64,000 bases of DNA from an uncultured Acidobacteriota bacterium (GTDB taxonomy: Bacteria > Acidobacteriota > Vicinamibacteria > Vicinamibacterales > Fen-181): NCBI GenBank assembly GCA_963783255.1, contig CAWAMP010000014.1, positions 135,692 to 199,691 of the forward strand, given 5' to 3'. A model generated the notes under the pieces. That model saw nothing but the letters and a program-made list of their open reading frames with translations, ran no database searches and had not been told where the DNA came from. This document shows positions 14,875-45,178 of the stretch, piece by piece (the first letter of the stretch is position 1; every line of letters starts with the position of its first letter). A program made the position numbers and the translations under genes.

Positions 14875-14902
14875 AAGGCTCAAGGCTCAGGGCTCACGGT
14901 AC
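14875..14902. repeat. heptamer tandem repeat A(A/G/C)GGCTC in the sufC-sufD spacer
   Basis: aaggctc aaggctc agggctc acggtac. The same unit recurs at 34642..34680. Confidence 0.5.
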
Positions 14903-14915
14903 GAGGCGCGACGAG

Positions 14916-17910: not shown

Positions 17911-17975
17911 CACGGCTCTCGACACTCGGCCCTCGGCCGTGCCAGGCGCCGGGCCGAAAGCCTTTGAGAACAGTC

Positions 17976-18402: not shown

Positions 18403-18417
18403 TGGCCCGCGCCTTGC
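18403..18417 (+). promoter_or_regulatory. sigma-54-type -24/-12 promoter candidate upstream of the minor-pilin operon
   Basis: tggcccgcgccttgc matches TGGCAC-N5-TTGC in the GG and GC positions with exact spacing. It lies 31 nt upstream of the ATG at 18448. Confidence 0.35.
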
Positions 18418-18447
18418 CCTACGGTGGTCCCGGGGGTTGGACCCGAC

Positions 18448-19062: not shown

Positions 19063-19070
19063 GGATCACC

Positions 19071-19628
19071 ATGAGCGCCAACGTGCCGGCGGTTCGCAGA
19101 GAGCCCAGACATTCGGAGCGGGGGGTCAGCCTGCTCGAGACCGTGGTCGCATTGAGCATCCTTCTCGTCGTCGCGATGGGCCTCCTGCCGCTCGGCGTCG
19201 TGGCCATCTCGACCACCGAGACCCAGGGCCATCTGGTCGCCCGTGTCACCGAGTACTCGCAGGACAAGATGGAACAGCTCCTGTCGCTGGCCTACAACGA
19301 CGGCGTCACGGACACCCGGGCGCGCGTGGCGACGCCGTTCGGCACGACCAGCGGTGGCACGGGACTCGCCGTGGGCGGCAGCCCGAACCCGGCCGCCCCG
19401 GTCGCGCTCTACGTGGACTATCTCGACGCGATGGGCACGCCGGTGGACGCCACCGGCACCGCCGAGCCCGCCGGGTGGTTCTACAAGCGCGTCTGGCAGG
19501 TCTCCCTGCCGGCGGGGACGACCGGAGTCAAGCAGGTCGCGGTGACGACCGTCGTGGCGCGCCGCGTCGGCTGGATCGGCCGCGTGCCGCAGACGACGGT
19601 CATTTCGCAGAAGACGTTTCCGTTCTGA
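19071..19628 (+). CDS. PilV-like minor pilin
   Basis: SERGVSLLETVVALSILLVVAMGLL prepilin-type N-terminal helix. Second gene of the cluster. Confidence 0.7.
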   Translation: MSANVPAVRREPRHSERGVSLLETVVALSILLVVAMGLLPLGVVAISTTETQGHLVARVTEYSQDKMEQLLSLAYNDGVTDTRARVATPFGTTSGGTGLAVGGSPNPAAPVALYVDYLDAMGTPVDATGTAEPAGWFYKRVWQVSLPAGTTGVKQVAVTTVVARRVGWIGRVPQTTVISQKTFPF

Positions 19629-19637
19629 GGAGGTTCC

Positions 19638-20657
19638 ATGACCGGACCCGCCCAGCGCGCCGTGAGGCCGTCCCGCGATTCCGAACGCGGTTTCTCGCTC
19701 ATCGAGACGATGGTCGCGATGGCGTTGCTCCTCATTGTTTCGGCAGGGATGATGGAGGGGATGCTGCAGCTGTCGAGAGTCCAGAACTCCGTGTACAACA
19801 GGTCGGCGATGCACGACGGCGTCCGCAGCGCCACCGAGCTGCTTCAGCAGGAGGTCGGGCAGGCGGGCAGCATCACACTGCCCGAGCCCGTCAGGCTGCT
19901 GCAGGCGGTGGCTGCCGGCCCGAATACCACCGTCACCGTCGACTCGGTCTCGAACATGTTCGTCGGCGAGCACCTCGTCATCGGCGCGGGCTCCTCCGAA
20001 GAGACGGTCCTGGTCGCCGCCATCGGCACGAGCCCGCCTTCGATCACCGCGACGTTTGAAAAGGCGCACAACGCAAACGAGCCTGTTGCGGTTCGTGGCG
20101 GTTTCGCCACCGGCGTCGTGCCATGCGCCAGTCAGGCCGCCTGTCCGGGGTCGGCCGTCGGCACCACGACCTTCCCCAACGGATCCACCGCCTACCTGAT
20201 GAAGCTCTACGGGGACATCAACGACGACGGGCGCATGGTGTATGTCGAGTACAGGTGCGACATCGACGCGGGAATCCTGTACCGGAACGTGATCGAAAAC
20301 GCGGTCACGCCAGGCGCTGCGCCGACGAAGACCGCGGCGGGTCCGACCCAGGTCCTGCTGGACAACCTCACGGACCCGGACACGGGCCGCGTTCCGTGCT
20401 TCGTCTACCAACAGCAGACGGTGTCCCCCCATATCTTCGTGATCAACGTCGCGATCTCGCTCACGACGCGGGCGCAGTTCAGGGACCGCAGTGCCGGGAT
20501 TCAAAAGGAAACCAAGTCGCTCCTGAACGTCGCGCCGAGAAACGTCTTCAACTCGTGGCTGCTGGCCAGCATGGCCACGAGCGACAGGGTGCACGGGATA
20601 CCGCAGAGCATCAGGGACCTGTTGCCACCGCCGATCGTGGTTACTGCCCAGCAGTAA
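19638..20657 (+). CDS. PilW-like minor pilin
   Basis: SERGFSLIETMVAMALLLIVSAGMMEG N-terminal methylation-type motif. 339 aa. Confidence 0.7.
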   Translation: MTGPAQRAVRPSRDSERGFSLIETMVAMALLLIVSAGMMEGMLQLSRVQNSVYNRSAMHDGVRSATELLQQEVGQAGSITLPEPVRLLQAVAAGPNTTVTVDSVSNMFVGEHLVIGAGSSEETVLVAAIGTSPPSITATFEKAHNANEPVAVRGGFATGVVPCASQAACPGSAVGTTTFPNGSTAYLMKLYGDINDDGRMVYVEYRCDIDAGILYRNVIENAVTPGAAPTKTAAGPTQVLLDNLTDPDTGRVPCFVYQQQTVSPHIFVINVAISLTTRAQFRDRSAGIQKETKSLLNVAPRNVFNSWLLASMATSDRVHGIPQSIRDLLPPPIVVTAQQ

Positions 20658-20718
20658 TAGGGTGGACGGCATGCCTCAGCGCATCGCGATGCTGTTGCCA
20701 ACGCCGTAACGGACCGGG

Positions 20719-22209
20719 ATGGAAGATATGAACAGGACTGACGAAAAGGGAATGGCGCTGATCCTGGTGATGATCATGCTGGCGGTGCTGTCCGTCATCG
20801 CTGCGTCGCTGATGGCCGTGTCCACTGCCGACACGGCGTCCAGCACCAACTACAGGCTGATGACCCTCGCCAGGTACGGCGCGGAAACGGCCGTTCACCG
20901 GGCCGCCAACTATCTGATGAGCAACGCGTACGCGGCGGCAGGGCCAGGCACCGGGGCGGATCCGCTCACCAACTACGACATCACCGCTCCCTACCCCGGC
21001 AGCCTGGATCCCGTCACGAACCTGCGCGTGGTGACCTACGGTGGCGCTCCGGTCAGGCTGTCGCACAGTGCGACGAGTTTCAACTACCCGGGCGGGTTCG
21101 GGGGAACGGTCGGGACCGCATACCGGGCCGCGTCCACCGGGACGCTGGCCGTGACACTGCCCGGGGCGTACGTGGTCACGTATCGCGCGGTGGCAACGCT
21201 CGTCTCGATGCGCCTGGTCGATGTCCTCGGGGGAGGGACTCGCGTCGTCCAGACCTGGAAGATCACGGGCGAGGGCGTCATGCCGTCCACCGGCGCCGTG
21301 ATCGATGTGTCTTCGATCCTGGAACGGCAGGTCCAGCCGACCTTCAGGTACGCCGCCTTCGCCGTCGCCAACGAATGCAAGGCGCTCTGGTGGACGGGCA
21401 ACGGGACTGTTGACAGCTACGATTCGACCTCGCCGCTGGTTGCCGGGGCGCCGGTCATCTCGAATACCGACGGCAACGTTGGTACCAACGGCCAGCTGTG
21501 GGTGGCGAACAACTCCAACGTCTATGGCAGCCTTTCGGTTCCCCCACCTCAGCTCTCTAATTGCCTCCCACAGCTCGTGGGTTCGGCCCAGGTCCAGGAC
21601 GGGACAGTGTATCTGCCTCAGACCGTGAGCTACCCGACCCCGGACCCGCCCAATCCGATGCCGGGAACGGGCAACGAGATGATCAACGTGAATACGGACT
21701 TCAACCCCCCGACTCTCGACGAGAACGGCAACCTGGTCGGTGCGACCCACGCCGACGTGAACGTGCAGGCCGGAAGGACGCTGACACTGCACGCCGGCAC
21801 GTACAACATGAACAGCCTGTCACTTGCCGGCGGTGCGACGCTCGTCATTGCCGGAACGGGCAACGTCGTCATCAACCTCGCGGGGCAGGGCTACAACACG
21901 GGCCAGTCGGTGCTCGACATTGCCGGCAACACCATCTCGACCGGGAGCTACGATCCTGCCAGGCTCCAGATCATCTACGGCGGCGAGGCGACGGTCGGAT
22001 TGTCGGGCAGCGGCGAGACGTCGGCTCTTCTCTATGCACCGAACGCGACGGTCAACATGAATGCCGCCGGGGGCCACTGGTACGGTGCGGTGATCGGCAA
22101 GACAGTCAAGGACGCGTCAGCCGCCCTGCACTACGACCGCTCGCTTCAGCGGAAGATGATGACGCTCGGCGCCTTCATGCTCGACTCGTTCACCTGGCGG
22201 AAGTTCTAG
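20719..22209 (+). CDS. PilX-like minor pilin / pilus tip-associated protein
   Basis: N-terminus EKGMALILVMIMLAVLSVIAASLMAVS ... YRLMTLARYGAETAVHRAANYL (PilX-N-like). Long Gly/Thr/Asn-rich beta-rich C-terminal part. Confidence 0.7.
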   Translation: MEDMNRTDEKGMALILVMIMLAVLSVIAASLMAVSTADTASSTNYRLMTLARYGAETAVHRAANYLMSNAYAAAGPGTGADPLTNYDITAPYPGSLDPVTNLRVVTYGGAPVRLSHSATSFNYPGGFGGTVGTAYRAASTGTLAVTLPGAYVVTYRAVATLVSMRLVDVLGGGTRVVQTWKITGEGVMPSTGAVIDVSSILERQVQPTFRYAAFAVANECKALWWTGNGTVDSYDSTSPLVAGAPVISNTDGNVGTNGQLWVANNSNVYGSLSVPPPQLSNCLPQLVGSAQVQDGTVYLPQTVSYPTPDPPNPMPGTGNEMINVNTDFNPPTLDENGNLVGATHADVNVQAGRTLTLHAGTYNMNSLSLAGGATLVIAGTGNVVINLAGQGYNTGQSVLDIAGNTISTGSYDPARLQIIYGGEATVGLSGSGETSALLYAPNATVNMNAAGGHWYGAVIGKTVKDASAALHYDRSLQRKMMTLGAFMLDSFTWRKF

Positions 22210-24685: not shown

Positions 24686-24803
24686 GCGTAATCTCCTTGA
24701 GGCCGCCTGTCCCGCCGTCGCCCTCGGGGCGGAGGCGGAAGCCCAGAGCCTGTGGTGTGTTAGGCTACCGTATCTTCCATCCGTCATCCACAGGAGGAGC
24801 GAC

Positions 24804-25304
24804 ATGGCATCCGAAGACAACCTCATGGCGGCGTTCGCGGGCGAGAGCCAGGCGAACCGCAAGTACCTGGCGTTCGCGAAGAAGGCCGAAGCCGAGGGCC
24901 TCAAGCAGATTGCGAAACTCTTCAGGGCGGCGGCCGCGGCCGAGACCGTCCACGCGCTCGCGCACTTCCGCGCCGCCGGGCACGTGAAGGACACGGTGGC
25001 GAACCTCCAGGCCGCCATCGAAGGCGAGAACCACGAATTCACCACGATGTATCCGGAGTTCATCGCGGCGGCCGTGGCCGAGGGGAACAAGGGCGCGCAG
25101 CGCAGCTTCGAAAAGGCGAACGCGGTGGAGCAAACCCACCACGCGCTCTACAGCGAGGCGCTCGAAGCCGCCAAGGCCGGCAAAGACCTGCCCGAAGCCG
25201 ACCTCTACGTCTGCGACATCTGCGGGCACACGGTCGCCGGCGAAGCGCCCGATGTCTGCCCGGTCTGCGGCGCCCGCCGCGAGAGGTTCAGCAAGGTGGA
25301 GTAG
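24804..25304 (+). CDS. rbr: rubrerythrin
   Basis: AGGAGG at 24792..24797, then the ATG at 24804. MASEDNLMAAFAGESQANRKYLAFAKKAEAEG, EGENHEFTTMYPEF, and C-terminal rubredoxin-like CDICGH ... CPVCGA. Confidence 0.9.
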   Translation: MASEDNLMAAFAGESQANRKYLAFAKKAEAEGLKQIAKLFRAAAAAETVHALAHFRAAGHVKDTVANLQAAIEGENHEFTTMYPEFIAAAVAEGNKGAQRSFEKANAVEQTHHALYSEALEAAKAGKDLPEADLYVCDICGHTVAGEAPDVCPVCGARRERFSKVE

Positions 25305-30122: not shown

Positions 30123-30905
30123 ATGGAACTTCGACTCTACCAGGTGGACGCGTTCGCCGATCGGCTGTTCGGCGGCAATCCCGCGGCGGTCTGCCCGCTC
30201 GACGGCTGGCTGCCCGACGAGACGATGCAGCAGATTGCGGGGGAGAACAACCTCGCCGAAACCGCCTTCTACGTGCGCGACGGCGGCGGCTTCCACATCC
30301 GATGGTTCACGCCGACCGTCGAAGTGGACCTCTGCGGCCACGCCACGCTGGCCTCGGCCTACGTGGTCTTCACCCACGACCGCCATGCGGGCGAGGTGGT
30401 CGAGTTCTCGTCGAAGAGCGGCCCGCTGAAGGTGAGGCGCGAAGGCGACCTGCTGGTGCTCGACTTCCCGGCCGACCCGGTGGCGCCCGTCTCCGTGCCG
30501 CAGATGCTGATCGAAGCGCTCGGCCGCGAGCCGACCGAGACCTACAAGGGAAAGACGGACTACCTGGTCGTCTACGGCATCGAGGAGCACGTGGCCGCGC
30601 TCACCCCGGACCTCTGCGACCTCGCCATGGTCCCCGCCCGCGGCATCATCGTCACCGCCCCCGGCCGCCAGGTCGATTTCGTCTCGCGGTTCTTCGCGCC
30701 CCAGGTCGGCGTTCCCGAGGACCCGGTGACGGGCTCGGCGCACACGACGCTCACGCCCTACTGGTCCGCCCGGCTTGGCAAGATGGAACTGTCGGCCGTG
30801 CAGCTTTCCAAGCGACAGGGGCGCCTGCGGTGCCGCCTGGCGGGCGACCGGGTGGAGATCGCCGGACGCGCGGTCCCCTACCTGGCAGGGACCATCACTG
30901 TCTAG
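30123..30905 (+). CDS. PhzF-family isomerase
   Basis: MELRLYQVDAFADRLFGGNPAAVCPL ... NLAETAFY ... IRWFTPTVEVDLCGHATLA ... EDPVTGSAHTTLTPYW. Confidence 0.9.
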   Translation: MELRLYQVDAFADRLFGGNPAAVCPLDGWLPDETMQQIAGENNLAETAFYVRDGGGFHIRWFTPTVEVDLCGHATLASAYVVFTHDRHAGEVVEFSSKSGPLKVRREGDLLVLDFPADPVAPVSVPQMLIEALGREPTETYKGKTDYLVVYGIEEHVAALTPDLCDLAMVPARGIIVTAPGRQVDFVSRFFAPQVGVPEDPVTGSAHTTLTPYWSARLGKMELSAVQLSKRQGRLRCRLAGDRVEIAGRAVPYLAGTITV

Positions 30906-31001
30906 AGGATCTTGCGATCTTGCGAACTGGGGATCTTGCGAACTGGGGATTCTGCGAACTGGGGATCTTGCGAACTGGGGATTCTCGAACCTTCGGAATC
31001 C
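30906..31001. repeat. octamer tandem array (GCGAACTG / GGGATCTT, 12 units) ending in a hairpin
   Basis: aggatctt gcgatctt gcgaactg gggatctt gcgaactg gggattct gcgaactg gggatctt gcgaactg gggattct cgaacctt cggaatcc. The last units form the hairpin ggggattc..gaatcccc (30977..31003). The array starts 1 nt after the phzF-like stop. Confidence 0.85.
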
Positions 31002-31199
31002 CCGTCATTCGGCTGAAGTTCTCGCGAGTTTGGTCGATAAACCCATAAGGGACGAGAGTTTGTCAAGCCGGGTATTTCCCTGACGGTCCTCAAGCAGTCA
31101 GAGCGGTGATCGGCCGGAATGACCCACCGGCGCTGACTCGGCGGGCAAGTCGTGCCGTCGTGAACTGGGGTGAATCGCGACGAGTTGGCACCTTGTACC

Positions 31200-31228
31200 T
31201 TGACAGTACAAGCTCTAGTGTGTAGAGT
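31200..31228 (+). promoter_or_regulatory. sigma-70-like promoter TTGACA-N17-TAGAGT for the cytochrome/porin pair, overlapped by palindrome CTTGTAC-N7-GTACAAG
   Basis: ttgaca at 31200..31205, a 17-nt spacer, and tagagt at 31223..31228. The inverted repeat cttgtac (31192..31198) / gtacaag (31206..31212) brackets the -35 element. It lies in a lower-GC 360-nt spacer, about 140 nt upstream of the ATG at 31372. Confidence 0.35.
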
Positions 31229-31371
31229 TTCTCGGCGGTGGGCCGTGCGGAATATACGGGCCAGCGTCCCCTGATCGGGTCGTCCAACCGCAGGTTCGGT
31301 CTCGGTCCTTCTATCACGTTCATCGGTCTCGAGGCGGACGTCCGTCGAGGCCAGTCGAAGAGGAATTCCTT

Positions 31372-32308
31372 ATGCGCCTTCGCCACATCGTTCTGGCGCT
31401 GGCCGGAGCGGCCGTTCTGCTCGGAGGCAGTCATGCCTTCGCGCAGAAAGCCGCGCCGCCGGCGGGCTGGAGCGCGACGGACTGCCAGTCGTGTCACGAC
31501 AAGGCTGCCGGGCCAGCGTTCCAGAAGACCAAGCATGCCGCCAGCGAACAGAGCTGCGCAGCCTGCCACACCAACGTTGCCGAGCACATGAAGGGCCAGA
31601 TGGGCGGCGACAAGAACGCCCCGACTCCGTCGCTCAAGAAGATGACGGCGCGGCAGATCAACGACGCCTGCCAGAAGTGCCACGAGAAGAACAATCAGCT
31701 CAGCTACGACACCAGCCTGCATGCGCGTCGCAACGTGGCCTGCACGTCGTGCCACGGGATCCACGAGGTACAGCTCGGTGAAGGCCCAGCTGAAGACGAA
31801 GATGGACGCCGACACGTGCTACACGTGCCACAAGTCGCAGCGCGCCCTCTCGATGCGCACCTCGCACCATCCGGTCCGCGAAGGCAAGATGGGCTGCGCG
31901 AGCTGCCACAACCCGCACGAGGGTAACCGCCCGAAGATGCTGAAGGCCGATTCGGTGAACGAGCTGTGCTACACCTGCCACACCGAGAAGCGCGGTCCCT
32001 TCCTCTTCGAGCACGCTGCCGTCCGCGAGGACTGCGCGTCGTGCCACGAGCCGCACGGCTCCAACCACAAGCGGCTGCTGAAGAACAAGGCGCCGAACCT
32101 GTGCTGGAACTGCCACCTCTCCGGCTCCGGCCACTTCGGGTCGGGCGACAACTTCAACAACGAAAAGGGCGGCGTGCCGGTCGCTCCGACTGGCGCTCCC
32201 TCCGGTTATCCGACGATGGGTTCGCGGTTTGTCGAGAAGAGCTGCAAGAACTGCCACGTCAGCGTCCACGGTTCCAACTCGCCGCAAGGCGCCTACTTCC
32301 TGAGGTAA
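31372..32308 (+). pseudogene. decahaem c-type cytochrome, DmsE/MtrA/PioA/MtoA family, interrupted by one 1-nt frameshift at about 31768 (or sequencing error)
   Basis: Track ORFs 31372..31926 and 31721..32308 join as ...CTSCHGIHE|YSSVKAQLKTKMDADTCYTCH. Signal peptide MRLRHIVLALAGAAVLLGGSHAFAQ. Ten CXXCH motifs. Family block CHTEKRGPFLFEHAAVREDCASCHEPHGSNHKRLL and C-terminal CKNCHVSVHGSNSP. Confidence 0.85.
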
Positions 32309-32311
32309 ACC

Positions 32312-34638
32312 ATGAAGAGAGCATTTACGACGACAGCGCTCCTCGCCATGGTCGCCCTCATGGCGAGTTCGTTTGCGGCGGCGCAGGACAAGCCGGCCAG
32401 CAGCTTCGGCGGGGAAGTCACCCTCGGCGCGCTCGGCCGCACCGACGTGTCCTCCTCGAAGTTCCAGGAGTACCGCGAGGTTCCGAAGGGTCTTTCGCTC
32501 CCCTACATGAACCTCTTCGCGACGACCACGAAGCTGGACTTCAACCTGATGGTCGACAACGTCCGGCAGTCCGACCAGCGCTACGCCGGCTGGTTCAATA
32601 CGGGCATGTTCGACCTCGGGTTCGACTATAACCAGACCCCGCACAACATGGGGAACTCCGCCCACTCCGCCTGGAACGAGACGGGCACGGGCGTCTGGGG
32701 CATGAACACGGTTCTCACCACGGCGCTCGCCAACGCGACCGACCCGCTCGCGAGTTCGGCGCGGACCTACGATTTCTACAACAACCTGCTCGCGCCGGTG
32801 TTCGCGGACACGAACACCTACGATGTGAGCAGCCTCCGCCAGCGCGGCACGGTCACGCTGGACCTCAGCAAGAAGCTGCCGTTCGACTTCGCGTTCACCT
32901 ACATGCGCGAACACAAGTCGGGCTACCGTGGCGAGGGCGGTGGTGACATTCTCGGCTGGGTGTCGCCGATTGTCGATCTCGCCGAGCCGCTCAACGAGTC
33001 CACGCAGGACTACGGGTTCCGCGCCGGCTACAACCTCAAGCCGGGCGGCGTGCTCAAGGCGGGGAACATTCACGGGACGTTCAACCGCAACGTGTTCAAC
33101 AACAACGCCGAAACGCAGTTGATTGACAACCCGTTCCGCCCGAACAACCTGGCGTACGCGTCGGGTGTTCCGACCGGCTCGGCGACGACGCTGTTCACCA
33201 CGGCGCCCGACAACGAGGCCAGCACCGGTTCGGTCGGCTTCCAGCTGAAGTTCGCCAAGCAGACCCGGATTGCCGCGGACTTCGCCATGGCATCGTGGAC
33301 GCAGAACGCCGCGTTCTACCCGATGACGCTCAACCCGCTCATCGTGAACGGCTCCGGGCAGCCGACCAACTCCACGGCGTCGTACCCGGCGTCGTCGCTG
33401 AACGGAAAGATCAGCACCGACACGACGAACGTCTACTTCTCGACCAGACCGATCGCGGATCTGGGCGTTCGCGTGCAGTACCGCAGAGTACGGGTACAAG
33501 GACAAGTCGGCTCGCTTCGTCATTCTGGGCGACACGTCCGGCTCGCCTGACAACCGCTGGCAGGCGGCCACTGTGTCGGCGGACGACCCCTACGGCCACG
33601 CGACGGCGAATCGGACGGACGCCGACACGTCGTACTTCACCGTCCAGGCCAACTACGACATCAAGGCGTTCACCGTTGAAGGCGCGTACAAGAATGCGTC
33701 GAGTTCGTGGGTGGGACGCACCGGGTCCTCCGGCGACTCAGGCGAGGAGAAGACCTACACGCTGGCCCTTCTGTATCACGCCAGCGACCTGCTCGGCTTC
33801 CGCTTCATGAACGACTGGGCGAACCGGACGGTGAGCGGCGTCGTGGCAGGGTCCGTGGCGGCGGTGCAGGGCGTCATGTCTGACCACGCCGAGCGCGACC
33901 TGACCCGTACCGGGTTCAATGTCGAGTTGACGCCCAACGACAAGGTCGACGTGACGTTCGCCTACTTCCGCAACAACGCCGAGTATCCGAACCGGCCCGC
34001 CGAAGGGATTGACGACCCCACGGCGTTCTCCGGTCTGCTCTCGGCGAAGTACGACTCGTTCACCGGCGAGGTGGGTTTCCGCCCGAACGCGAAGCTCGAA
34101 CTGGACGCCTACTACACCTACGAGACGAACGACCAGACGAACCAGTGGGTAGGGCTGACCAACAGTACCCTACGTGAACAACAAGCTCAACTACGCCGGC
34201 AGCGACAAGACCAACACGTTCGGTCTCAACTTCGTCTACAACATCATTCCCGACAAGTGCTCGTTCAGGCTGCTGGCCCGCCAGCAGAAGGTGGACGGCT
34301 TGATGGACATCACGGCGAAGGAGACGCTGGCGCCGGGCGCGACCAGCAACTTCTACACGCCGGGCCGCACGACCCTGATCCCGGCCGGGCAGGGCGGCGC
34401 CGCGGATGTCACGGACTGGGACGACACGAAGATCACGACGTTCGGCATGCAGATCGACTACGCGATCGCAAAGTCGTGGAAGCTGGCCGGCGGGTACGCC
34501 TACGAGAAGTACGACTACACGGATCCTTACACGAGCGGCGCGACGCAGTTCCCGATTTCGGTCTTCTTCGCAGCGAAGGCCGACTACGGGTCGTACGAGG
34601 CGAACGTGGCCTACACGACGCTGACGTATCGGTTCTAG
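32312..34638 (+). pseudogene. MtrB/PioB-like outer-membrane beta-barrel (decahaem-associated porin), interrupted by two 1-nt frameshifts (or sequencing errors)
   Basis: Track ORFs 32312..33550, 33573..34643 and 34174..34638 join colinearly (...RVQY|AEYGYKDKSARF... and ...LTNST|YVNNKLNYAGSDK...). Signal peptide MKRAFTTTALLAMVALMASSFAAAQD. Alternating beta-strand pattern, terminal ...AYTTLTYRF. The gene starts 4 nt after the cytochrome stop. Confidence 0.75.
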
Positions 34639-34641
34639 GGT

Positions 34642-34680
34642 AGGGCTCAGGGGGCTCAGGGCTTCACGGCTCTGGGCCTC
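34642..34680. repeat. degenerate heptamer/octamer repeat AGGGCTC immediately after the porin stop
   Basis: agggctc agggggctc agggcttc acggctc tgggcctc. Same unit type as 14875..14902. Confidence 0.5.
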
Positions 34681-34696
34681 GAGATGCGGTCTGGAA

Positions 34697-34732
34697 GGGG
34701 CCGGCGCGCAACGGGCGCGCCGGCCCCTTTTT
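34697..34732 (+). terminator. Rho-independent terminator of the cytochrome/porin unit
   Basis: Perfect 13-bp GC stem ggggccggcgcgc / gcgcgccggcccc with a 5-nt loop, followed by ttttt. Confidence 0.7.
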
Positions 34733-34816
34733 GTTGAGCGTGGGGCGGGGCTGCATTCGACTTCGCTCGGGCCGGTCGGCCCCGCCTGGCGGCGGACCTG
34801 AAGGCCCGCCCTGCAC

Positions 34817-35842
34817 CTAGTCGCTCCCCAGGATCCCGCCGAGGCCGGCGCCGCCAAGGATGGAGCCCTCTTCCTTGCCGCCCTTTCCGATCCCTGGAAT
34901 GGCCTTGTGGATCCGGCCGGCCAGGCGGCTGAGCGGCAGCGACTGCAGCCACACTCTGCCAGGGCCTGTCAGCGTGGCGAAGAAGAGCCCCTCGCCTCCG
35001 AACAGCGCCGTCTTCACCCCGCCGACCAGCTGCACGTCGTAGTTGACCGACGGCTGAAGCGCCACCAGGCACCCGGTGTCCACCCGGAGCGTTTCACCGG
35101 CCGCGAGGTCGTACGTGTGCACGGTGCCGCCCGCGTGGCAGAAGGCGAGGCCGTCGCCCTCGAGCTTCTGCATGATGAACCCCTCGCCGCCGAACAGCCC
35201 GACGCCAATCTTCTTCTGGAACGCGATGCCGATCGACACGCCCTTGGCCGCGCAGAGGAACGAGTCCTTCTGGCAGATGAGGGTCCCGCCGAGCTTCGAG
35301 AGGTCCATCGGCAGGATCTTGCCGGGATAGGGCGCCGCGAACGCCACGCGGTGCACCCCGCTGCCGCCGTTGGTGAACACGGTCATGAAGAGGCTCTCGC
35401 CGGTCAGCAGCCGCTTGCCGGCGCCGAGCAGCGCACCCATGAGGCCCGAGCCCTGCTGTTTCGCACTCCCGTCTCCGAACACCGTCTCCATCTTGATGCC
35501 CGGCGTCATGAACATCATGCCGCCGGCCTCGGCTACCGCGCTCTCGCCGGGGTCGAGCATCACCTCGATGAACTGCATTTCGTTGCCGTAGATCTTGAAC
35601 TCGATTTCGTGCGCCTGCCGCGCCGGAACCGGCGGGGCCGCCGTTGCCGCCGGCGCGCCGCCGCCAAGGCGGTCCGCCAGCTGAGGGACGTCCTTGATCG
35701 GCGTCCAGTTGCTCATGCCGCCCGTGAACACCAGCGAGTTGCCGTCCGCCGTGCCCGCCTGGATCCTCCGGACAACCTCGTCCTCTCCGACGGGCCCCAC
35801 CTGCTGCCCGCCGATTGCCAGGTACCACTGTTCACCCGCCAT
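34817..35842 (-). CDS. GYF_2 domain + AIM24/TIGR00266-family protein
   Basis: GGGAGG then the ATG at 35842. MAGEQWYLAIGGQQVGPVGEDEVVRRIQAG ... LVFTGGMSNWTPIKDVPQL (GYF-like), then EFKIYGNEMQFIEVMLDPGESAVAEAGGMMFM ... GEGLFFATLTGPGRVWLQSLP. Confidence 0.8.
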   Translation of the reverse strand: MAGEQWYLAIGGQQVGPVGEDEVVRRIQAGTADGNSLVFTGGMSNWTPIKDVPQLADRLGGGAPAATAAPPVPARQAHEIEFKIYGNEMQFIEVMLDPGESAVAEAGGMMFMTPGIKMETVFGDGSAKQQGSGLMGALLGAGKRLLTGESLFMTVFTNGGSGVHRVAFAAPYPGKILPMDLSKLGGTLICQKDSFLCAAKGVSIGIAFQKKIGVGLFGGEGFIMQKLEGDGLAFCHAGGTVHTYDLAAGETLRVDTGCLVALQPSVNYDVQLVGGVKTALFGGEGLFFATLTGPGRVWLQSLPLSRLAGRIHKAIPGIGKGGKEEGSILGGAGLGGILGSD

Positions 35843-35871: not shown

Positions 35872-37412
35872 ATGGAACGACCGGCCCCACGTCGTGAGGC
35901 GTGGGTTACGCTGTGCGCGGAGATGCAACACGGCGCAGAGCCACAGACGAAGGGAGCCGGTCATGCCGAAGGATATCCGATACGTGGGACTGGATGTACA
36001 CGCGGCGACCATTACGGTGGCCGTCGCCGAAGGCGGACGCGAGGGCGTCCAGGCGCTGGGGACGATTCCCCACGAACCCGACGCGGTGGCGCGTCTGGTC
36101 CGCAAACTCGGGCCGGCGGCAACGCTGCGGGTCTGCTATGAAGCCGGGCCCTGCGGGTATGGCCTGTATTGGCAGCTGGCGGCGCTCGGGATTGCGTGCA
36201 CCGTGGTCGCCCCGACCCTGGTGCCGGTCCGAGCCGGGGACCGGGTGAAAACGGACCGGCGCGATGCGGAGAAGCTCGCCCAGTGTCTCCGAGCCGGGAC
36301 GCTGACTGGGGTCTGGGTGCCCACCCCCGCGCACGAGGCGCTGCGCGATCTGGTCCGGGCCCGGGCCGTGGCCAAGCAGGATCAACTGCGTGCCCGCCAT
36401 CGGCTGGGCAAGTTTCTCCTGCGACACGGTCGTCGCCGACCCGGGACCGGCCGTTCGTGGACCCAGGCCCATCTCACGTGGGTGCGGAGCCAGACCTTCC
36501 CGTTCGCGGCCCAGGACCTGACCTTTCGGGATTACCTGCACGAGGTCGATCATGTCGGGGATCGGGTGCGGCGGCTCGATACGGCGCTGGACGAGGCGAT
36601 TGCCGCCGCGGAGCCGACCCAACAGGCGGTGGTGGCGGCCCTTCAGGCCTTGCGGGGCGTGTCCCAGGTGACGGCGGTCACGATGGTGGCCGAACTCGGC
36701 TGCTTCTCGCGCTTCCGCCGTGCGAAGCAGCTCATGGGCTACACCGGCCTGGTCTCGCGCGAGGCCTCGAGCGGGCCGCGGGTGCGCCGCGGGGCGATTA
36801 CCAAGACAGGGAATGCGCACGTGCGTCACGTGCTGGGCGAGGCGGCGTGGACGGCTCGGTACCAGCCCGCGCGCTCCCCGGTCCTCCGGCGGCGCCAAGC
36901 GGCGCTGGCCCCAGAGGTGGTCGCGCTGGCCTGGCGCGCGCAGGTCCGCCTTCACCAGCGGTACCGACGGCTCCTGAGCCGCGGCAAGATCCGGCAACAG
37001 GTCATCACGGCCGTGGCCCGCGAACTCGTCGGATTCATGTGGGCGATCGGCGTGTGGGTGGAACAGCACGACGCGAGTCAGCGGGCCCAGGCCCCGCACG
37101 CAACCTAGGCCCTGCCACACCCGGCCGCCGCGGCCGGGTGACGAGGATGGTCGAGCGGCCCGCGGAAAGGAGGGCCCTCGGTGAGTCTATGTGGGCCACC
37201 ATGCGGTGGCATCCACGCAGCTAGTCGGAGGTAGCTCCCGACGGATCACGACCATGACGGCGAGCCGCAGGCTCGATCCGCGAATATCAGAGTGATCGAC
37301 CGTCGACCAGGCTGTCTCGACCATCCTCGCCATCGCGGCCGACCGAATCACCACCGGAGACTGACACGACGGACACAAGCACCTTAAGGCTGGACTTGAC
37401 GGGTCGTTCCAT
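35872..37412 (+). mobile_element. IS110-family insertion sequence, IS1111-like layout (short 5' arm, ~300-nt 3' arm, subterminal inverted repeats)
   Basis: atggaacgaccgg at 35872..35884 versus cgggtcgttccat at 37400..37412 (12 of 13 complementary). Contains the DEDD transposase gene. Lower GC than the surroundings. Confidence 0.8.
35963..37108 (+). CDS. IS110-family DEDD transposase/recombinase
   Basis: MPKDIRYVGLDVHAATITVAV, CYEAGPCGY, VKTDRRDAEKLA (DEDD region). C-terminal GVSQVTAVTMVAELG ... LMGYTGLVSREASSGPRVRRGAITKTGNAHVRHVL. Confidence 0.9.
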   Translation: MPKDIRYVGLDVHAATITVAVAEGGREGVQALGTIPHEPDAVARLVRKLGPAATLRVCYEAGPCGYGLYWQLAALGIACTVVAPTLVPVRAGDRVKTDRRDAEKLAQCLRAGTLTGVWVPTPAHEALRDLVRARAVAKQDQLRARHRLGKFLLRHGRRRPGTGRSWTQAHLTWVRSQTFPFAAQDLTFRDYLHEVDHVGDRVRRLDTALDEAIAAAEPTQQAVVAALQALRGVSQVTAVTMVAELGCFSRFRRAKQLMGYTGLVSREASSGPRVRRGAITKTGNAHVRHVLGEAAWTARYQPARSPVLRRRQAALAPEVVALAWRAQVRLHQRYRRLLSRGKIRQQVITAVARELVGFMWAIGVWVEQHDASQRAQAPHAT

Positions 37413-39618: not shown

Positions 39619-39815
39619 GGGTGATCCTCGGGCAGGCCTGGCGGCCGGCGTTTCATTTGAGCGGTCTCAGCAGGAGATCCTGGAAATCGAACGTGCAGGC
39701 GCTGGACGAAACTGTCGAGGTCGGGGGGGACGACCTGCGCGGGTTGCGCGAGCGCCAGGCTCGCTCCGAGCAGCAGCGCAACGACCGGAAGGACGCGTCG
39801 GGTGTGTCTGCTCAT
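39615..39815 (-). CDS. small secreted Pro-rich hypothetical protein, translationally coupled to the prolyl oligopeptidase
   Basis: MSRHTRRVLPVVALLLGASLALAQPAQVVPPDLDSFVQRLHVRFPGSPAETAQMKRRPPGLPEDHP has a clear signal peptide with ALA-Q. The stop overlaps the downstream ATG (ATGA). There is no obvious SD, and GC3 drops in the last third, so this is only tentative. Confidence 0.3.
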   Translation of the reverse strand: MSRHTRRVLPVVALLLGASLALAQPAQVVPPDLDSFVQRLHVRFPGSPAETAQMKRRPPGLPEDHP

Positions 39816-40262
39816 CAGTGCGGATCGTAGCACGCGGCAGGTCGCCCTGAGCCGTCGGTCGCCGCGGGCGCCCGCTCTCGCTCACGCTCGACAGTGCCGA
39901 GCCCGGCATCCTCGTTCGGTTGGTTTCGCGTGAGCCAGTCGGCATGGCACGGAACGCCTCCGGGCAAGTCAGAACCTGCCGTGCCGGGCTGTGCATCCGA
40001 CCGTCGGCACTGCTCGCATGTTCGCTCGACCGGGCATCCCGCGACGCCCGTCGGCCGACATGGCGGCGGACGGGTGCGGGATGCCTCGCGAGGCCGGCGA
40101 CTGGCGGCAAGCGCCTCCGCGTCAGTTCCGCAAACACGCTCGCAGGCTGGGGGCTCCAGCGGGGTTGAGCGCGATCACGCACGCGGATCCGACCGCGCGA
40201 CCCCCGCGGCCAGCGGCCGACGACGGCCAGAGAGCGGGTTTGCCGCGCAGCCGACCGGAGAC

Positions 40263-40466
40263 TCAGAGATATCGCAGGACCGCCTGGAGGGCATCGACCA
40301 GGGCGTTCGAGATGAAGGTGTAAACCGGCGCCAAGTCGCCGGTGCTGACGGCCGTCGCCACCGCGACCGGGTCGCTCAGGACCAGCCAGATGGTCGAGGC
40401 GGCCAGCACGACACACATGACCGCAACCGCGCCGGCGGCTTTCAGCGAGGCGGCGGCGAAAGTCAT
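40263..40466 (-). CDS. small hydrophobic hypothetical protein
   Basis: 67 aa: MTFAAASLKAAGAVAVMCVVLAASTIWLVLSDPVAVATAVSTGDLAPVYTFISNALVDALQAVLRYL. High GC3 and a GGAG 8 nt upstream. Confidence 0.4.
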   Translation of the reverse strand: MTFAAASLKAAGAVAVMCVVLAASTIWLVLSDPVAVATAVSTGDLAPVYTFISNALVDALQAVLRYL

Positions 40467-40579
40467 GGCGAAACTCCGCGGAACGTTCTCGGCGGCTACG
40501 CGGCAGACACCGGCGTGGCCGCCGATCCACTATCACTAATACGCACGAGGCCGCGGAAGGGTTGCATGGGGGCTGCAGA

Positions 40580-43500
40580 TCAGCGCACCGGCCCCAGGTA
40601 CTTGTCCAGCCAGGCCGTCGTCTCCTTGATGTACTCGCTCCTCGGCGGGATGTGGTCGGTGTCGTACTCGATCTTCCGCTTGTGTTCGGGTGGGGTGCCC
40701 AACAGGTCGAACATGGGCCGGATCTCTGAGTCGATATAGCTGTCGTACTTGCCGTTCAGCATCAGTGTCGGGATCCTGACTCGGGTTACGTAGTTGATGC
40801 TGCTGATTTCCGGTCGTATCTCGGCTGAACCCATGCCCCCCGCCAGCAAGACGCTGACTGCCAGCCTGTCCTCCACTGCCGGGATGATGGCGCCGTTCCC
40901 CCCTCCCCAGCTCATCCCGTAGTAGGCGAGCTTTCTGCTGTCGATCTCCGGTCGGGTCTCCAGGTAGTCTATGCACCTCCTGAAGTCCTTGATCTGCTGG
41001 GCCCCGCGCGCGACATGGGCACGCGTGCCGGCGCTCGGTGCCGCCGCTCCAGGATCTGCACTTCGTCGCTCGAACGTCCCCTTGTACACCGGAAACAGCA
41101 CGGCGCGCCCGCCCTTGACCAGGAACGAGAGGAACATGGGGTACTCGTAGTAGGTCTCGAAGTCTTCGCTCGACGGGGTCCGGAGGGCCGCGCTTCCGGG
41201 GAAGTAGATGACTGTCTGGAAAGGGGGCTGGCTGGTGCTCGGGAGGAACAGGTACGCCGTAACTCGCTCGCCCCCGTAGGCGGCGTCGAAAGAGATCTTC
41301 TCCAGAATCCACCCGTTCGGGCTCTTCTCTCGAGACTCGACCGTGGCGTTCAGGTCCGTCTTGTCGTAGGCGAACAGCTGCTCCTTGTAGACCTTGAAGA
41401 TCTGATCGGAGACCGGTCGCTGCGCGCGAATGTCCGGGGTCGCCGCTGGGCGCACCGGTGCGAGCGCCGCTTCTCGAACCTCGTCAGCGCGCGGATAGCG
41501 CGCGAGCCGGAACCCGTTCCTGGGAGAGCGGTCCATGGCGGGTGCTTGCCGCTGGTTGCCGAACTCGTAGGTGTTGTCCTCCCAGGCGCCGCCCCGGATC
41601 ACGCGCCCCACCGGGGTCTCGTTCCAGCACCACTCCCTGACGTTGCCCGGCATGTCGTAGGCCCCGTAGGCGGTGAAGTTCGGGAGACTCCCGACCTTGA
41701 CGGGGCCGCTTCCGCCGAAGTTACTGAACGGTGCCAGGGCAGCGAACCCGCCTAATTGGGGGGACTGGAACGTGGGAGTTAAGCCTCCTCTGGCCACGTT
41801 CCAGTGAGCCGAGGTTGGAAGGCTCATGCCGGCAAACTCCGCGTACGCCGCGGCCTCGTACCAGCTCACTCCGGATACCGGGTAGTCTGACTGCCCCTCG
41901 GGGTAGTCGCCTCCAAGCCAGGTCGATGGGCCCGGCTGGCCCGACTTGTCCACGAACGCCTTCATCGCCTGGTCCCAGGTCATGTCGCGCCCATCGCTCA
42001 CGAACCGGTGCTTCCAGTAGTCACGATTCCGGTAACCGCCGGCTTCCGTGAACGCGCGATACTCCCGGTTTGTCACCTCGTATCGGCCTATGAAGAAGTC
42101 CTCCAAACGCCCGACGGGTGTGTCGGTGGCCGAGACGCGCACGATGCCGGCCGGCAGGCTGCCCACTTTGTCCAGCGTGCGGACGAGGTCGGAAGGATCG
42201 AGGGTGCGCAAACCCCGTTGGAAGGCGCCCCCCCCTCGGCCCCAGGTGGACGCTGCCGCCAGGACCGTTTCGTACCCCGCCTTCTCGAACTTCCACCGGA
42301 AGATCCCGACCGGGACACGGACTTTCTCGAGCGGCGTGAGCCCAAGATACGTCCACTCCGCGTCGGGCGTCTCGTACGCCTTCATGGAGACACGGGCGCC
42401 AGGGGGTTCGGTCCTGATGTTGATCCTCAGTGACACCTTCGAGAACAGCTCAGCCAGTGCCGGATCGTCGCCGAGGATGGCCTCGGCCTGCACCGCCAGC
42501 CGATACGGCGGCACGAGGTTCCGCCAGTAGTCGTTCTCGCCAATCAGCCGCTCTATCTCCGGCAGCGCCACCTCGCGCGCCCACCTCAACCGGGCCCGGT
42601 GCCGTACGAACCAGGCCGCCGACACCGCCACGATCAGTATTGCAGCCGCCACCGCGATTGCGACCCTTGGCCGGCGGAGCTGGCGCGCCAGCGCACGCAC
42701 GCTGAACGCCCCGGACGCCTCGGCCCGCTGCGCCTCCTCGTAAGCGCGCAGATCCGCGAGCATCGCGCCCGCCGAGTCGTATCGGGCCTCGGGTTTCTTC
42801 TTCAGCGCCTTCGCCACGACGTGCTCGAGCGCCTCCGGCACGGGCGGCGTCCGGTGCCGCATCGGCCGGGGGGCTTCGTGCATGATGGCGTGGACTATCG
42901 CCACTTCCCGTTCGCCCCGAAAGGGCAGTTCGCCCGCGAGCATTTCGTACAGCACCACTCCCGCCGACCACAGATCCGAACGGTGATCGACTTCGCAGCC
43001 AGACGCCTGTTCTGGCGACATGTAGGCCACCGTCCCCAGCGTGGTTCCCGTCTTGGTCAACGCCGGCCCACCCCGCAGCTTGGCGAGGCCGAAATCCATG
43101 ATCTTGGCCTGGCCCTGCCCGGTGACCATGATGTTGCTGCTCTTGATGTCGCGATGGACGATGCCGTTGCGGTGGGCCTCGTCAAGCCCCGCGGCGATCT
43201 GGCCGAACAGCGCCACCACCTGGTCGATGTCGAGCCTCTCCCGCTTGATCCTGCTGCGGAGCGGCTCGCCGTCCACGTACTCCATGGCGATGAACGGCTG
43301 GCCGGCGTCCTCCCCGACCTCGTGAACGGCGCAGATGTTCGGGTGCGACAGCGAGGCCGCCGCCCGCGCTTCGACGAGAAACCGCTCCCGCATCTCGTCG
43401 AAAGCGGCCAGCCTCGGCGGCAGGAACTTCAGCGCCACCCACCGCTGCAGCTGGAGATCTTTCGCTTTGTAGACCACCCCCATCCCGCCGCGGCCGAGCT

Positions 43501-43693
43501 CCTGGGCGACCTCGTACTTGCCTGCGACCAGGCGGGCCGCAGTTAGCGACGGCAGTAGCTGGTCGTGGGGCCCGCCCGTGATCGCGGAGTCCTCGCGGTT
43601 ACGGTCCTGGCTCCCGCTCGAGAACCGGGTGGTGCACTGGCTGCAGGATGTGGCGGTATCGGGGTGGTCCGCCTGACAGTGAGGACACTGCAT
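40580..43693 (-). CDS. receptor Ser/Thr protein kinase with zinc-ribbon N-terminus, TM segment, FGE/SUMF1-like domain and C-terminal alpha/beta hydrolase (S9/DLH-like)
   Basis: GAAGGAGG lies 8 nt before the ATG at 43693. MQCPHCQADHPDTATSCSQC; kinase motifs GRGGMGVVYKA, HRDIKSSNIMV, DFGLAK, YMSPEQ; TM IAVAAAILIVAVSAAWFV; FIGRYEVTNREY ... VSGVSWYEAAAYAEFAG ... NVREWCWNE ... NGFRLARY; hydrolase YYGMSWGGG ... DTDHIPP. Confidence 0.9.
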   Translation of the reverse strand: MQCPHCQADHPDTATSCSQCTTRFSSGSQDRNREDSAITGGPHDQLLPSLTAARLVAGKYEVAQELGRGGMGVVYKAKDLQLQRWVALKFLPPRLAAFDEMRERFLVEARAAASLSHPNICAVHEVGEDAGQPFIAMEYVDGEPLRSRIKRERLDIDQVVALFGQIAAGLDEAHRNGIVHRDIKSSNIMVTGQGQAKIMDFGLAKLRGGPALTKTGTTLGTVAYMSPEQASGCEVDHRSDLWSAGVVLYEMLAGELPFRGEREVAIVHAIMHEAPRPMRHRTPPVPEALEHVVAKALKKKPEARYDSAGAMLADLRAYEEAQRAEASGAFSVRALARQLRRPRVAIAVAAAILIVAVSAAWFVRHRARLRWAREVALPEIERLIGENDYWRNLVPPYRLAVQAEAILGDDPALAELFSKVSLRINIRTEPPGARVSMKAYETPDAEWTYLGLTPLEKVRVPVGIFRWKFEKAGYETVLAAASTWGRGGGAFQRGLRTLDPSDLVRTLDKVGSLPAGIVRVSATDTPVGRLEDFFIGRYEVTNREYRAFTEAGGYRNRDYWKHRFVSDGRDMTWDQAMKAFVDKSGQPGPSTWLGGDYPEGQSDYPVSGVSWYEAAAYAEFAGMSLPTSAHWNVARGGLTPTFQSPQLGGFAALAPFSNFGGSGPVKVGSLPNFTAYGAYDMPGNVREWCWNETPVGRVIRGGAWEDNTYEFGNQRQAPAMDRSPRNGFRLARYPRADEVREAALAPVRPAATPDIRAQRPVSDQIFKVYKEQLFAYDKTDLNATVESREKSPNGWILEKISFDAAYGGERVTAYLFLPSTSQPPFQTVIYFPGSAALRTPSSEDFETYYEYPMFLSFLVKGGRAVLFPVYKGTFERRSADPGAAAPSAGTRAHVARGAQQIKDFRRCIDYLETRPEIDSRKLAYYGMSWGGGNGAIIPAVEDRLAVSVLLAGGMGSAEIRPEISSINYVTRVRIPTLMLNGKYDSYIDSEIRPMFDLLGTPPEHKRKIEYDTDHIPPRSEYIKETTAWLDKYLGPVR

Positions 43694-43805
43694 GCGCTGG
43701 TCCTCCTTCACGGTGGGTGTCGACGTCCGGAACGCCGCGAGTATAGCATCCGCCTGCGCGTCTGAGCATGGCGTGGACGGAGTCGCAGGCGCGCGATCGA
43801 GACCC

Positions 43806-45005
43806 CTACCGGACCAAAGTCAGTTCCTTCTGCGGGCCCGACAGGAACTCGGCGCCGGTCTTCGTGACGACCACCATGTCTTCCACCGTGGCGACGCCGT
43901 AGCCGGGGACCGTCAGCCGGGGCTCGAGCGTGAAGACCATGCCCTCCTCGATGGGCACGAACGGCTTCCGCGCGTATTTCTCCCAGGCCGGCCCGAGAAT
44001 GGCTGTCCCGTCGTGGGCGTACCTCCCGACCTGGTGTCCGAGGGCGTGCGGGTACTCCCCGTAGCCCGCCCCGGTGATGAGGTCCCGCGCCACCGCGTCC
44101 ACCGACTGCCCGGTCACTCCCGGTCGGAGGGCTCGCCGCGCCCGCTCGATGGCGTTCACGATGGTGTCGAACCCGCGCTGGACTTCCGGCGGGGCTGCCG
44201 CCTCGCCCTCCCGGAGGACGTAGAAGGTCCGCTGCAGATCGGCGCAGTAGTCGTCGCGTTTGATGCCGAAGTCCATGTTGACGATGTGCCCGCGCTCGAC
44301 CGCGCGCCCGGTCGGCGCGTAGTGTGCGCCGGCGGTGTCGGGCCCGGTGAAGACGGCGGGACATGTCCCCGCCTCCCACGCGAGGTCGAGGCGGTTGTCG
44401 CGAACGTGGGCCGCCACCATGTCCGCCACGTCACGCTCGGTGACGCCCGGCGCCAGGAACGCCGCCACCCTCGCGAACACGTCTTCGGTCAGGCCAATCG
44501 CCGCCTTGATTCGGGCCAGCTCCTCGGCCGTCTTCCGGGCCCGCAGCGCCGAGATCAGGCGCTCGGACGACACCAGGCGGCCCTCGAAGCCAATCTCCCC
44601 CAGCCACGCCTGCAGCGTCAGGTACATCCCGTGCGTCAGGCCGTCACAGACCTCGCTGTCCTGCGAGTAGTTGACCGCAATGGACGATGGGTTGCGGCGC
44701 TGGAGGAAGTCGAGCAGCGGCAGCCTGGCGCCCTGCACGTGGCCTTCCACGCGCCGGTAGGCGCCGACGTCTTCGATTGTCTGCCGGTCGTACTGGCCGA
44801 CAATCGCGTGCGCCTCGCCATCGGCCATGACGATGAAGGCGCTGTGCCACGTCACGTCGGCGGGCGCGAGGAACGGCAGGACGGGGTCGCCGTTGATCCC
44901 CGATTCGCGCACGAAGGTGAGCCAGCAGGGCAGGCCCAGTTCGTTCAGGATGCCGACCGCCTGGGCGATCTTCTCTTGGATCAGAGACATGGGAGAGCCT
45001 CGCAT
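43806..45005 (-). CDS. M24-family metallopeptidase (Xaa-Pro peptidase-like)
   Basis: Creatinase-like N-terminal half. Metal-ligand pattern VNMDFGIKRDDYCADLQRTF, HALGHQVGRYAHDG, FTLEP ... VEDMVVVT. Confidence 0.85.
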   Translation of the reverse strand: MRGSPMSLIQEKIAQAVGILNELGLPCWLTFVRESGINGDPVLPFLAPADVTWHSAFIVMADGEAHAIVGQYDRQTIEDVGAYRRVEGHVQGARLPLLDFLQRRNPSSIAVNYSQDSEVCDGLTHGMYLTLQAWLGEIGFEGRLVSSERLISALRARKTAEELARIKAAIGLTEDVFARVAAFLAPGVTERDVADMVAAHVRDNRLDLAWEAGTCPAVFTGPDTAGAHYAPTGRAVERGHIVNMDFGIKRDDYCADLQRTFYVLREGEAAAPPEVQRGFDTIVNAIERARRALRPGVTGQSVDAVARDLITGAGYGEYPHALGHQVGRYAHDGTAILGPAWEKYARKPFVPIEEGMVFTLEPRLTVPGYGVATVEDMVVVTKTGAEFLSGPQKELTLVR

Positions 45006-45067: not shown

Positions 45068-45165
45068 GCGAACTTGCGAACTTGCGATCTTGCGAACTTG
45101 CGATCTTGCGAACTTGCGATCTTGCGAACTCAGAACTCAGAACTCAGAACTCCGAACTCCGAACT
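45068..45165. repeat. composite tandem array: 8 octamers (GCGAACTT / GCGATCTT) running directly into 5 heptamers (CAGAACT / CCGAACT)
   Basis: Read directly. It occupies most of the 173-nt spacer between the GntR stop (45179) and the M24 start (45005). Confidence 0.85.
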
Positions 45166-45178
45166 GCAACCCGTCGCG

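Follow-up and report, generated by a model that had tools for sequence, protein, structure and literature searches.

The 64,000-nucleotide window analysed here (contig CAWAMP010000014.1, positions 135,692 to 199,691 of the forward strand) belongs to a Vicinamibacteria-like acidobacterium and carries two adjacent genes, one for a decahaem c-type cytochrome and one for a large beta-barrel, which belong to the families of the A and B subunits of the MtrAB, MtoAB and PioAB systems. An initial annotation had already described them as a two-gene module of this type in an Acidobacteria-like genome, an assignment that is borne out by profile searches, by homology to the Shewanella Mtr complex (Protein Data Bank, PDB, entry 6R2Q), by a model of the barrel and by the pairing of both genes in 27 related loci. 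The cytochrome gene opens with the ATG at 31372 and stays in frame 1 up to 31767; it resumes in frame 2 at 31769 and ends with the TAA at 32306-32308. As described earlier, bridging this one frameshift yields a protein of 311 amino acids (aa) with exactly ten CXXCH motifs, located between residues 38 and 295 and identical to the set originally listed, and with the CHTEKRGPFLFEH...CASCHEPHGSN block. The joined protein is colinear in end-to-end alignment with intact homologues of 70-91% identity, the closest being P0001 (91%), and the join requires no change in length. With the hidden Markov model TIGR03508 (DmsE-family decahaem) it scores 228.3 bits, above the curated cutoff of 192.2, and covers profile positions 3-258 of 258, while the unrepaired halves reach 54.5 and 172.1 bits and the intact homologue P0003 reaches 234.4 bits. 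Chain A of 6R2Q, the Shewanella MtrA, aligns with query residues 47-308 (chain residues 85-330) at E=2e-44. Beyond the ten motif histidines, 12 further histidines are invariant across eight sequences of 70-91% identity, and there are therefore enough ligands for bis-histidine coordination at all haems. The N-terminus, MRLRHIVLALAGAAVLLGGSHAFA/QK, is signal-peptide-like by eye and conserved in the homologues, and at the position of the ribosome-binding site the relatives have a purine-rich GAAAGG/GAGGA block.

The barrel gene begins with the ATG at 32312, just 3 nucleotides (nt) behind the cytochrome stop codon. Its segments 32312-33484, 33486-34166 and 34168-34638 join into the protein of 774 aa, ending in ...TLTYRF, whose start and approximate length had been given correctly in the initial annotation, and intact homologues, 56-87% identical, are colinear with the joined protein and show no change in length at the joins. 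The Pfam family PF11854 (MtrB_PioB; cutoff 23 bits) matches the first fragment with 91.8 bits and the second with 25.3 bits, which jointly cover profile positions 37-498; the third fragment, at 15.9 bits, stays under the cutoff and extends the match to profile position 635. An AlphaFold2 model built from a 73-sequence alignment (mean predicted local distance difference test 85.1, predicted template modelling score 0.78) has 26 long strands, and its best PDB match in a Foldseek search is 6R2Q_B, the MtrB of Shewanella (E=1.6e-34, template modelling, TM, scores 0.72/0.85). The runners-up are 22-strand TonB-dependent receptors (E=5e-11, TM about 0.36-0.37), which leaves MtrB as the sole strong match. 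The single cysteine of the barrel (...IIPDKCSF...) is replaced by tryptophan in the homologues.

The two genes also occur together elsewhere. A scan of species-representative genomes recovered 27 related loci, mostly from Vicinamibacteria/Acidobacteriota metagenome genomes and one from a genome labelled Gemmatimonas, with a best barrel of 70% identity. In these loci the cytochrome gene lies immediately 5' of the barrel gene, the majority of the cytochromes have 10 CXXCH motifs, and most loci have no second multihaem gene within 10 kb. The minimal AB-only layout proposed for our window prevails there as well and is the norm in this clade. At L021 (10655..14177) and L005 (1235..6213) extra cytochrome genes adjoin the AB pair. 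They encode a fusion protein, in which an 11-haem cytochrome is joined to a membrane domain of the formate-dehydrogenase-gamma-like cytochrome b type (FdhC/HybB-like), and an NrfH/NapC-like pentahaem of 475-525 aa, to which L005 adds a second DmsE-like decahaem; the extra cytochromes match the NrfH/NapC and cytochrome-b families, none matches TIGR03507 (MtrC), and both loci have the appearance of a more complete cluster of electron-transfer genes. In database searches the cytochrome had thousands of homologues and the barrel hundreds; the intact ones come mainly from metagenome genomes of Vicinamibacteria/Acidobacteriota, and many are named by their sources as DmsE-family or MtrB/PioB-family proteins, including ones from Vicinamibacterales, where barrel homologues of about 50% identity bear the name MtrB/PioB family. 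Eichorst et al. (2018) reported mtrA/mtrB homologues in thirteen Acidobacteria, among them the subdivision-6 isolate Luteitalea pratensis, and found complete mtr/omc operons in no genome (PMC5900883), and PioA/MtoA homologues have been reported in Acidobacteria (PMC10654088). The pair is not novel and adds to an abundant, already named family in this clade. The earlier remark that extracellular electron transfer is poorly documented in this lineage holds for experiments: literature searches yielded neither a paper that connects MtoA with Vicinamibacteria nor an experimental study, and the combination of Vicinamibacter and MtrB led only to the 2018 genome survey. It does not hold for the genes, which are abundant, named in databases and listed for Acidobacteria in that survey.

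Table 1. Coordinates of the conduit genes, the frameshift sites and other features of the window (position 1 is the first base of the 64,000-nucleotide stretch)
Feature	Position	Strand	Description
mtrA/mtoA-like gene	31372..32308	+	DmsE-family decahaem cytochrome (predicted periplasmic); 311 aa, one base removed
mtrB/pioB/mtoB-like gene	32312..34638	+	predicted 26-strand outer-membrane barrel; 774 aa, two bases removed
Ribosome-binding site GAGGA	31360..31364	+	7 nt upstream of ATG; by reading the sequence
Frameshift 1	31767..31768	+	one extra G, GAG-G-TAC; GTAC at 31768
Frameshift 2	33485..33488	+	AGAG (four bases) in place of one codon, right before TAC; GTAC at 33488
Frameshift 3	34168..34170	+	CCC, expected CC (ACC-C-TAC), right after GTAC (34165)
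Gamma-glutamyltranspeptidase gene, insertion	2404..2407	-	coding-strand GGG to GGGG; gene about 2330..3900
Kinase-FGE gene, insertion	8682..8683	-	CAG-G-TAC, coding strand; GTAC at 8679
Kinase-FGE gene, second insertion	8021..8022	-	CTG-G-TAC; GTAC at 8018
Broken kinase-FGE gene	7241..10152	-	about 963 aa, in three frames
Intact kinase-FGE paralogue	40580..43819		1079 aa
Sigma-70-like promoter (candidate)	31200..31228	+	TTGACA-17 nt-TAGAGT; 10/12 matches
Inverted repeat, operator-like	31192-31198/31206-31212	.	CTTGTAC-N7-GTACAAG; 7-nt arms, 100% complementary; brackets the -35 box
Leader hairpin	31324..31352	+	just 5' of the ribosome-binding site; -17.2 kcal/mol, z=-1.7
Intrinsic terminator (predicted)	about 34693..34739	+	17-bp G+C-rich stem, 5-nt loop, then UUUUUGUU
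Tandem array	30908..30995		16-nt unit GATCTTGCGAACTGGG, ~5.5 copies; intergenic between PhzF-like gene and promoter
IS110-family transposase gene	35894..37108	+	DEDD_Tnp_IS110 + Transposase_20; between AIM24-like and prolyl oligopeptidase genes
Truncated beta-lactamase-family gene	39678..39815		cut down to the first 48 codons, relative to L001
Suf-type Fe-S cluster assembly operon	10264..18299		cysteine desulfurase, NifU-like and FeS_assembly_P genes match Pfam (only these scanned)
Pilin/pseudopilin-like gene(s)	18415..22209		at least one, with N-terminal methylation motif
Rubrerythrin gene	24717..25304

Both genes of the pair are interrupted in the assembly, the cytochrome gene once and the barrel gene twice. 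The alignments to intact homologues are colinear across each interruption, and therefore each break corresponds to one extra base in the window. At the first site the related contig L001 reads GAG-TAC and the homologues have an ungapped HEY; at the second the homologues read YR[K/S]YGYKDKS and L001 has AG-CTAC; at the third the homologues read N[S/N]TYVNNK and L001 has ACA-CCTAC. The three frameshifts pointed out in the initial annotation are thus all present as single extra bases, but they are not specific to this locus, as three more were found in two unrelated genes. One of these, the gamma-glutamyltranspeptidase gene, breaks 25 codons short of its end, and removal of one base yields a match to PF01019 over 2-512/512 and the canonical C-terminus ...GGSDPRKDGLAIGY*. 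The other encodes a Ser/Thr kinase combined with an FGE-sulfatase and a C-terminal hydrolase-like part; over its three frames it is colinear with an intact paralogue of the same architecture in the window, and at the insertion at 8021..8022 the alignment passes from frame -3 (paralogue residues 587-812) to frame -1 (residues 818-1077). The window consequently holds at least six single-base insertions, half of them in the pair, and no deletions. Five of the six lie 0-3 nt from a GTAC, a distance at which only about 3% of the positions in these genes are found, and four of the GTAC-linked insertions extend a run of G (or C) that touches the motif. The binomial tail for this association is 1.9e-7, and in a rarity-weighted simulation scanning all 4-mers none of 100,000 runs was as extreme. 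An unweighted test for any shared 4-mer gave a weaker p=0.009, since sharing is frequent among common G+C 4-mers, and we judged the rarity-weighted test to be the appropriate one. Further same-strand frame changes, at 62760/62787 and 62071/62044, in the Suf and pilin operons and at the end of the gene at 4107, were set aside as normal gene junctions, each of which has a stop, a ribosome-binding site and a start of its own. An avoidance check for GTAC gave an observed/expected ratio of 0.78, which is too modest to decide whether avoidance marks a GTAC restriction system, and this idea was also set aside. The nearest relatives come from Nanopore-only metagenome assemblies with one round of Medaka polishing (PMC12313526). 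In related long-read contigs, 1-nt indels occur in clusters and disrupt conserved genes whose counterparts in the window are unbroken, and frameshift errors seem to be common in these assemblies. Such clusters lie at about 20460..21700 of L001, in the glycogen phosphorylase gene, at 7488-7499 and 8447-8472 of L002, and at 12713-12729 and 14660 of L020; GATC is present in both junction contexts of L002.

The signals around the pair comprise those that had been predicted earlier, namely a promoter, an operator-like palindrome and a strong terminator. The promoter-pattern scan found 2 sites compared with 0.4 expected in shuffled sequences, and both hexamers of the candidate promoter are kept in the window and in L001, L002 and L020. 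The inverted repeat is kept in L001 and L002, where it is lengthened to AGCTTGTRC...GYACAAGCT; the DNA farther upstream cannot be aligned. The predicted terminator begins 55 nt past the barrel stop codon and was overlooked by a simple pattern scan; it was detected by folding of 34640..34745, which gave -68.6 kcal/mol and z=-5.98, with none of 200 shuffled sequences being equally stable. With its own predicted promoter and terminator, it is reasonable to regard the pair as a self-contained unit. Ahead of the cytochrome gene, hairpins 8-15 nt 5' of its ribosome-binding site are also seen in L003, L007, L009, L015 and L020, with unrelated stem sequences and single-sequence z values from -1.0 to -3.8 across lineages (L015 -3.8, L003 -3.2). 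RNAalifold found no consensus structure for the leader among the relatives, and an Rfam search of 30850..34850 returned one chance-level match only and none to the hairpin, which may be a leader element.

In the local gene order, a membrane-protein gene and a PhzF-like gene precede the cytochrome and barrel genes, which are followed by opposite-strand AIM24-like and prolyl oligopeptidase genes. Two related contigs share this order, and synteny fades in deeper relatives. A functional tie of the pair to the upstream PhzF-like and membrane-protein genes, in the sense of a redox shuttle, was rejected, as their synteny is limited to L001, L002 and L020. A scan for open reading frames of at least 60 codons with a CXXCH motif found no others in the window, and so no MtrC-, CymA-, MtoD- or Cyc2-like partner is encoded there, in agreement with the initial annotation as regards MtrC-like and CymA/MtoD-like partners. 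The tandem array upstream of the promoter differs in copy number in L001 and is assigned an 8-nt register by the repeat tool; akin to it are GCGAAC/TCAGAAC repeats near 45087..45170, in another intergenic region. The IS110-family transposase gene, 1.2 kb downstream of the pair, is a lineage-specific insertion at a place where L001 has only ~100 nt. Farther downstream, and again relative to L001, the beta-lactamase-family gene is truncated and the intact kinase-FGE gene is inserted between a 67-aa gene and an M24 peptidase gene; these changes at 39678..43819 indicate, as far as the comparison of the contigs goes, a local rearrangement downstream of the conduit. The flanking content at 10264..18299 and 18415..22209, with the Suf-type operon and the pilin-like gene or genes, is housekeeping, and a rubrerythrin gene follows (Table 1).

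One of the characterized systems closest to the pair is the MtrCAB complex of Shewanella (6R2Q). The decahaem aligns with MtrA across 262 residues, the barrel model fits MtrB with its 26 strands, and the genes follow in the order A then B. In contrast to MtrCAB, no MtrC/OmcA-type surface decahaem is encoded in the window or beside the pair in the relatives, and the barrel shares only about 15% sequence identity with the Shewanella MtrB and is about 125 residues longer. An N-terminal CXXC motif is typical of the MtrB proteins of metal-reducing gammaproteobacteria, whereas the barrel described here has its single, non-conserved cysteine. With MtoAB of Sideroxydans lithotrophicus ES-1 and PioAB of Rhodopseudomonas palustris TIE-1 the pair shares the minimal set of cytochrome and barrel, the lack of a surface cytochrome and the Pfam/TIGRFAM families. 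PioA has a long N-terminal extension, while the A subunit here is compact. Unlike in the Mto and Pio systems, no gene for MtoD, CymA/ImoA or PioC (HiPIP) is adjacent within the 64 kb window, and to our knowledge the host lineage has no known Fe(II)-oxidising physiology. The likeness to Mto and Pio is one of layout and families. Barrels of 26 strands are predicted for MtoAB and PioAB, too (PMC10654088). Modules consisting of mtrAB only, such as that of Magnetospirillum magneticum AMB-1, which FeGenie lists under 'probable iron reduction', likewise show a two-gene layout that lacks mtrC, and their function, too, has been inferred (PMC7005843); this bacterium belongs to a different phylum and is likened to ours by layout alone. 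The known DmsE- and MtrB/PioB-family proteins of Vicinamibacteria are from the same clade and from soil metagenomes. Identity to their intact members reaches 91% (A) and 87% (B), and they differ in no substantive way, this copy merely appearing frameshifted in the assembly.

Taken together, the two genes probably encode a self-contained MtrAB/MtoAB/PioAB-type electron conduit across the outer membrane, and their frameshifts are most likely consensus errors. By homology with the Mtr complex, the cytochrome would be exported by the Sec pathway and threaded through the 26-strand barrel, so that a chain of ten bis-histidine haems would link the periplasm to the cell surface. As an MtrC-like surface cytochrome is missing, contact with the external partner would fall to the outermost haem of the A subunit itself, which might favour partners in soluble, chelated or colloidal form, for instance Fe(II), chelates of Fe(III) or humic quinones. 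An inner-membrane, quinol-linked partner would be encoded elsewhere in the genome. The quinol-oxidoreductase-type partners found at L021 and L005 support such a respiratory conduit, with its inner-membrane partner being encoded outside the window. FeGenie treats MtoAB or MtrAB without MtrC as ambiguous with respect to direction (PMC7005843). As to the direction of electron flow, it might be speculated that electrons are exported to external acceptors under oxygen limitation, which we tentatively place first; uptake from Fe(II) or as electrons might come second, and other uses would share the rest.

Several observations weigh against an intact electron conduit interrupted by mere consensus errors. 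Of the two TIGRFAM families in which the pair had been expected, TIGR03508 is clearly reached by the cytochrome, but the repaired barrel scores only 94.4 bits with TIGR03509, under the curated cutoff of 240.05, though PF11854 was passed. The TIGR03509 match still has E=6e-27 over profile positions 1-625/662, and the first barrel fragment alone gives 85.5 bits. Because the intact homologue P0123 is similarly low (90.7 bits), the sub-cutoff score is a trait of a divergent acidobacterial clade and not of frameshift damage, and the barrel is therefore placed in the Pfam-level family as such a clade. A profile of seven barrel sequences found zero matches in the PDB by sequence, and the fold search was needed. 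A redox partner is absent from the 64 kb covered by the CXXCH scan, and the sequence gives no clue to the direction of electron flow. Furthermore, about 170 other GTAC sites are without a frameshift, the frameshift junctions in L002 and L020 are not at GTAC, the link being specific to this window, and three of the six insertions fall in the 3.3-kb pair, while alignment to L001 shows no break in nine flanking genes. If the genes are intact, it is an improbable alternative that they serve another role and pass electrons to an extracellular terminal reductase, as in DmsEF-like systems for dimethyl sulfoxide or iodate, or take part in surface redox sensing or detoxification. The top NCBIfam model of the cytochrome is the generic 'DmsE family', MtrC is missing from the window and from beside the pair in the relatives, and the subdivision-6 strains in culture have been described as aerobic (PMC5900883), all of which would be compatible with such a role. 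However, no DmsAB-like or other reductase gene adjoins the pair here or in the 27 loci, as judged from their cytochrome content and the few genes inspected, and the extra genes that are linked to the pair in some relatives are quinol-oxidoreductase-type cytochromes, as in respiratory conduits.

The frameshifts themselves might be real in several ways. The pair could be a recently inactivated pseudogene pair in a lineage that is losing a conduit kept by its relatives, as would be suggested by the concentration of three breaks in so short a region and by a neighbourhood that is rearranged in comparison to L001, with the IS110 transposase gene, the beta-lactamase remnant and the inserted kinase gene. 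We nevertheless consider this unlikely, and likewise the dead pseudogene pair that the initial annotation had named as the alternative. Like lesions occur in two unrelated genes of the window; all six are +1 insertions, five of them linked to GTAC, which is unlike random decay; and after repair the pair has no premature stop, no deletion and no lost haem motif and keeps its C-terminal phenylalanine. The ratios of nonsynonymous to synonymous substitution rates against L001, 0.17 (A) and 0.28 (B), resemble those of the neighbours (0.09-0.27), although these values would be compatible with a very recent inactivation. Somewhat less credible still is that the insertions by GTAC are real products of a motif-targeted insertional process that inactivates genes, such as error-prone repair following a restriction-type cut at GTAC, or that they are +1-recoded sites. 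Programmed +1 ribosomal frameshifting, in which real extra bases would be bypassed where C follows a rare NTA codon (GTA or CTA), is very hard to credit, and so is a transcriptional correction. At five sites the 0-frame codon past the shift is indeed GTA or CTA, which are rare at a third-position G+C content of about 0.9, with the +1 frame reading TAC, but this pattern arises from any base inserted before TAC. The shift is preceded by different codons (GAG, AGA, ACC, CAG, CTG), the sites have no slippery or stimulatory element in common, the extra base is absent from every homologue, including those that are 84-91% identical, and five independent origins within one genome are implausible. Thus, we regard it as quite likely that the three frameshifts are motif-linked single-base errors of the consensus which cluster at GTAC, a pattern that would fit base modification or a context-dependent base-calling error. 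If the frameshifts are such errors, both genes are intact in the organism.

For this assembly, the link of the frameshifts to one short motif carries a lesson on data quality: 'pseudogene' calls made here should not be trusted at face value. With regard to the role of the conduit, be it uptake of electrons from Fe(II), reduction of Fe(III), Mn(IV) or humic substances under oxygen limitation, or another function, the locus makes the question no easier to test than it already is with the numerous intact copies, and an answer could come from cultured relatives. If expressed, the pair would add one more genome to the wide coding of an MtrC-less conduit in the Vicinamibacteria, abundant soil bacteria whose representative of subdivision 6 in culture has been described as aerobic.

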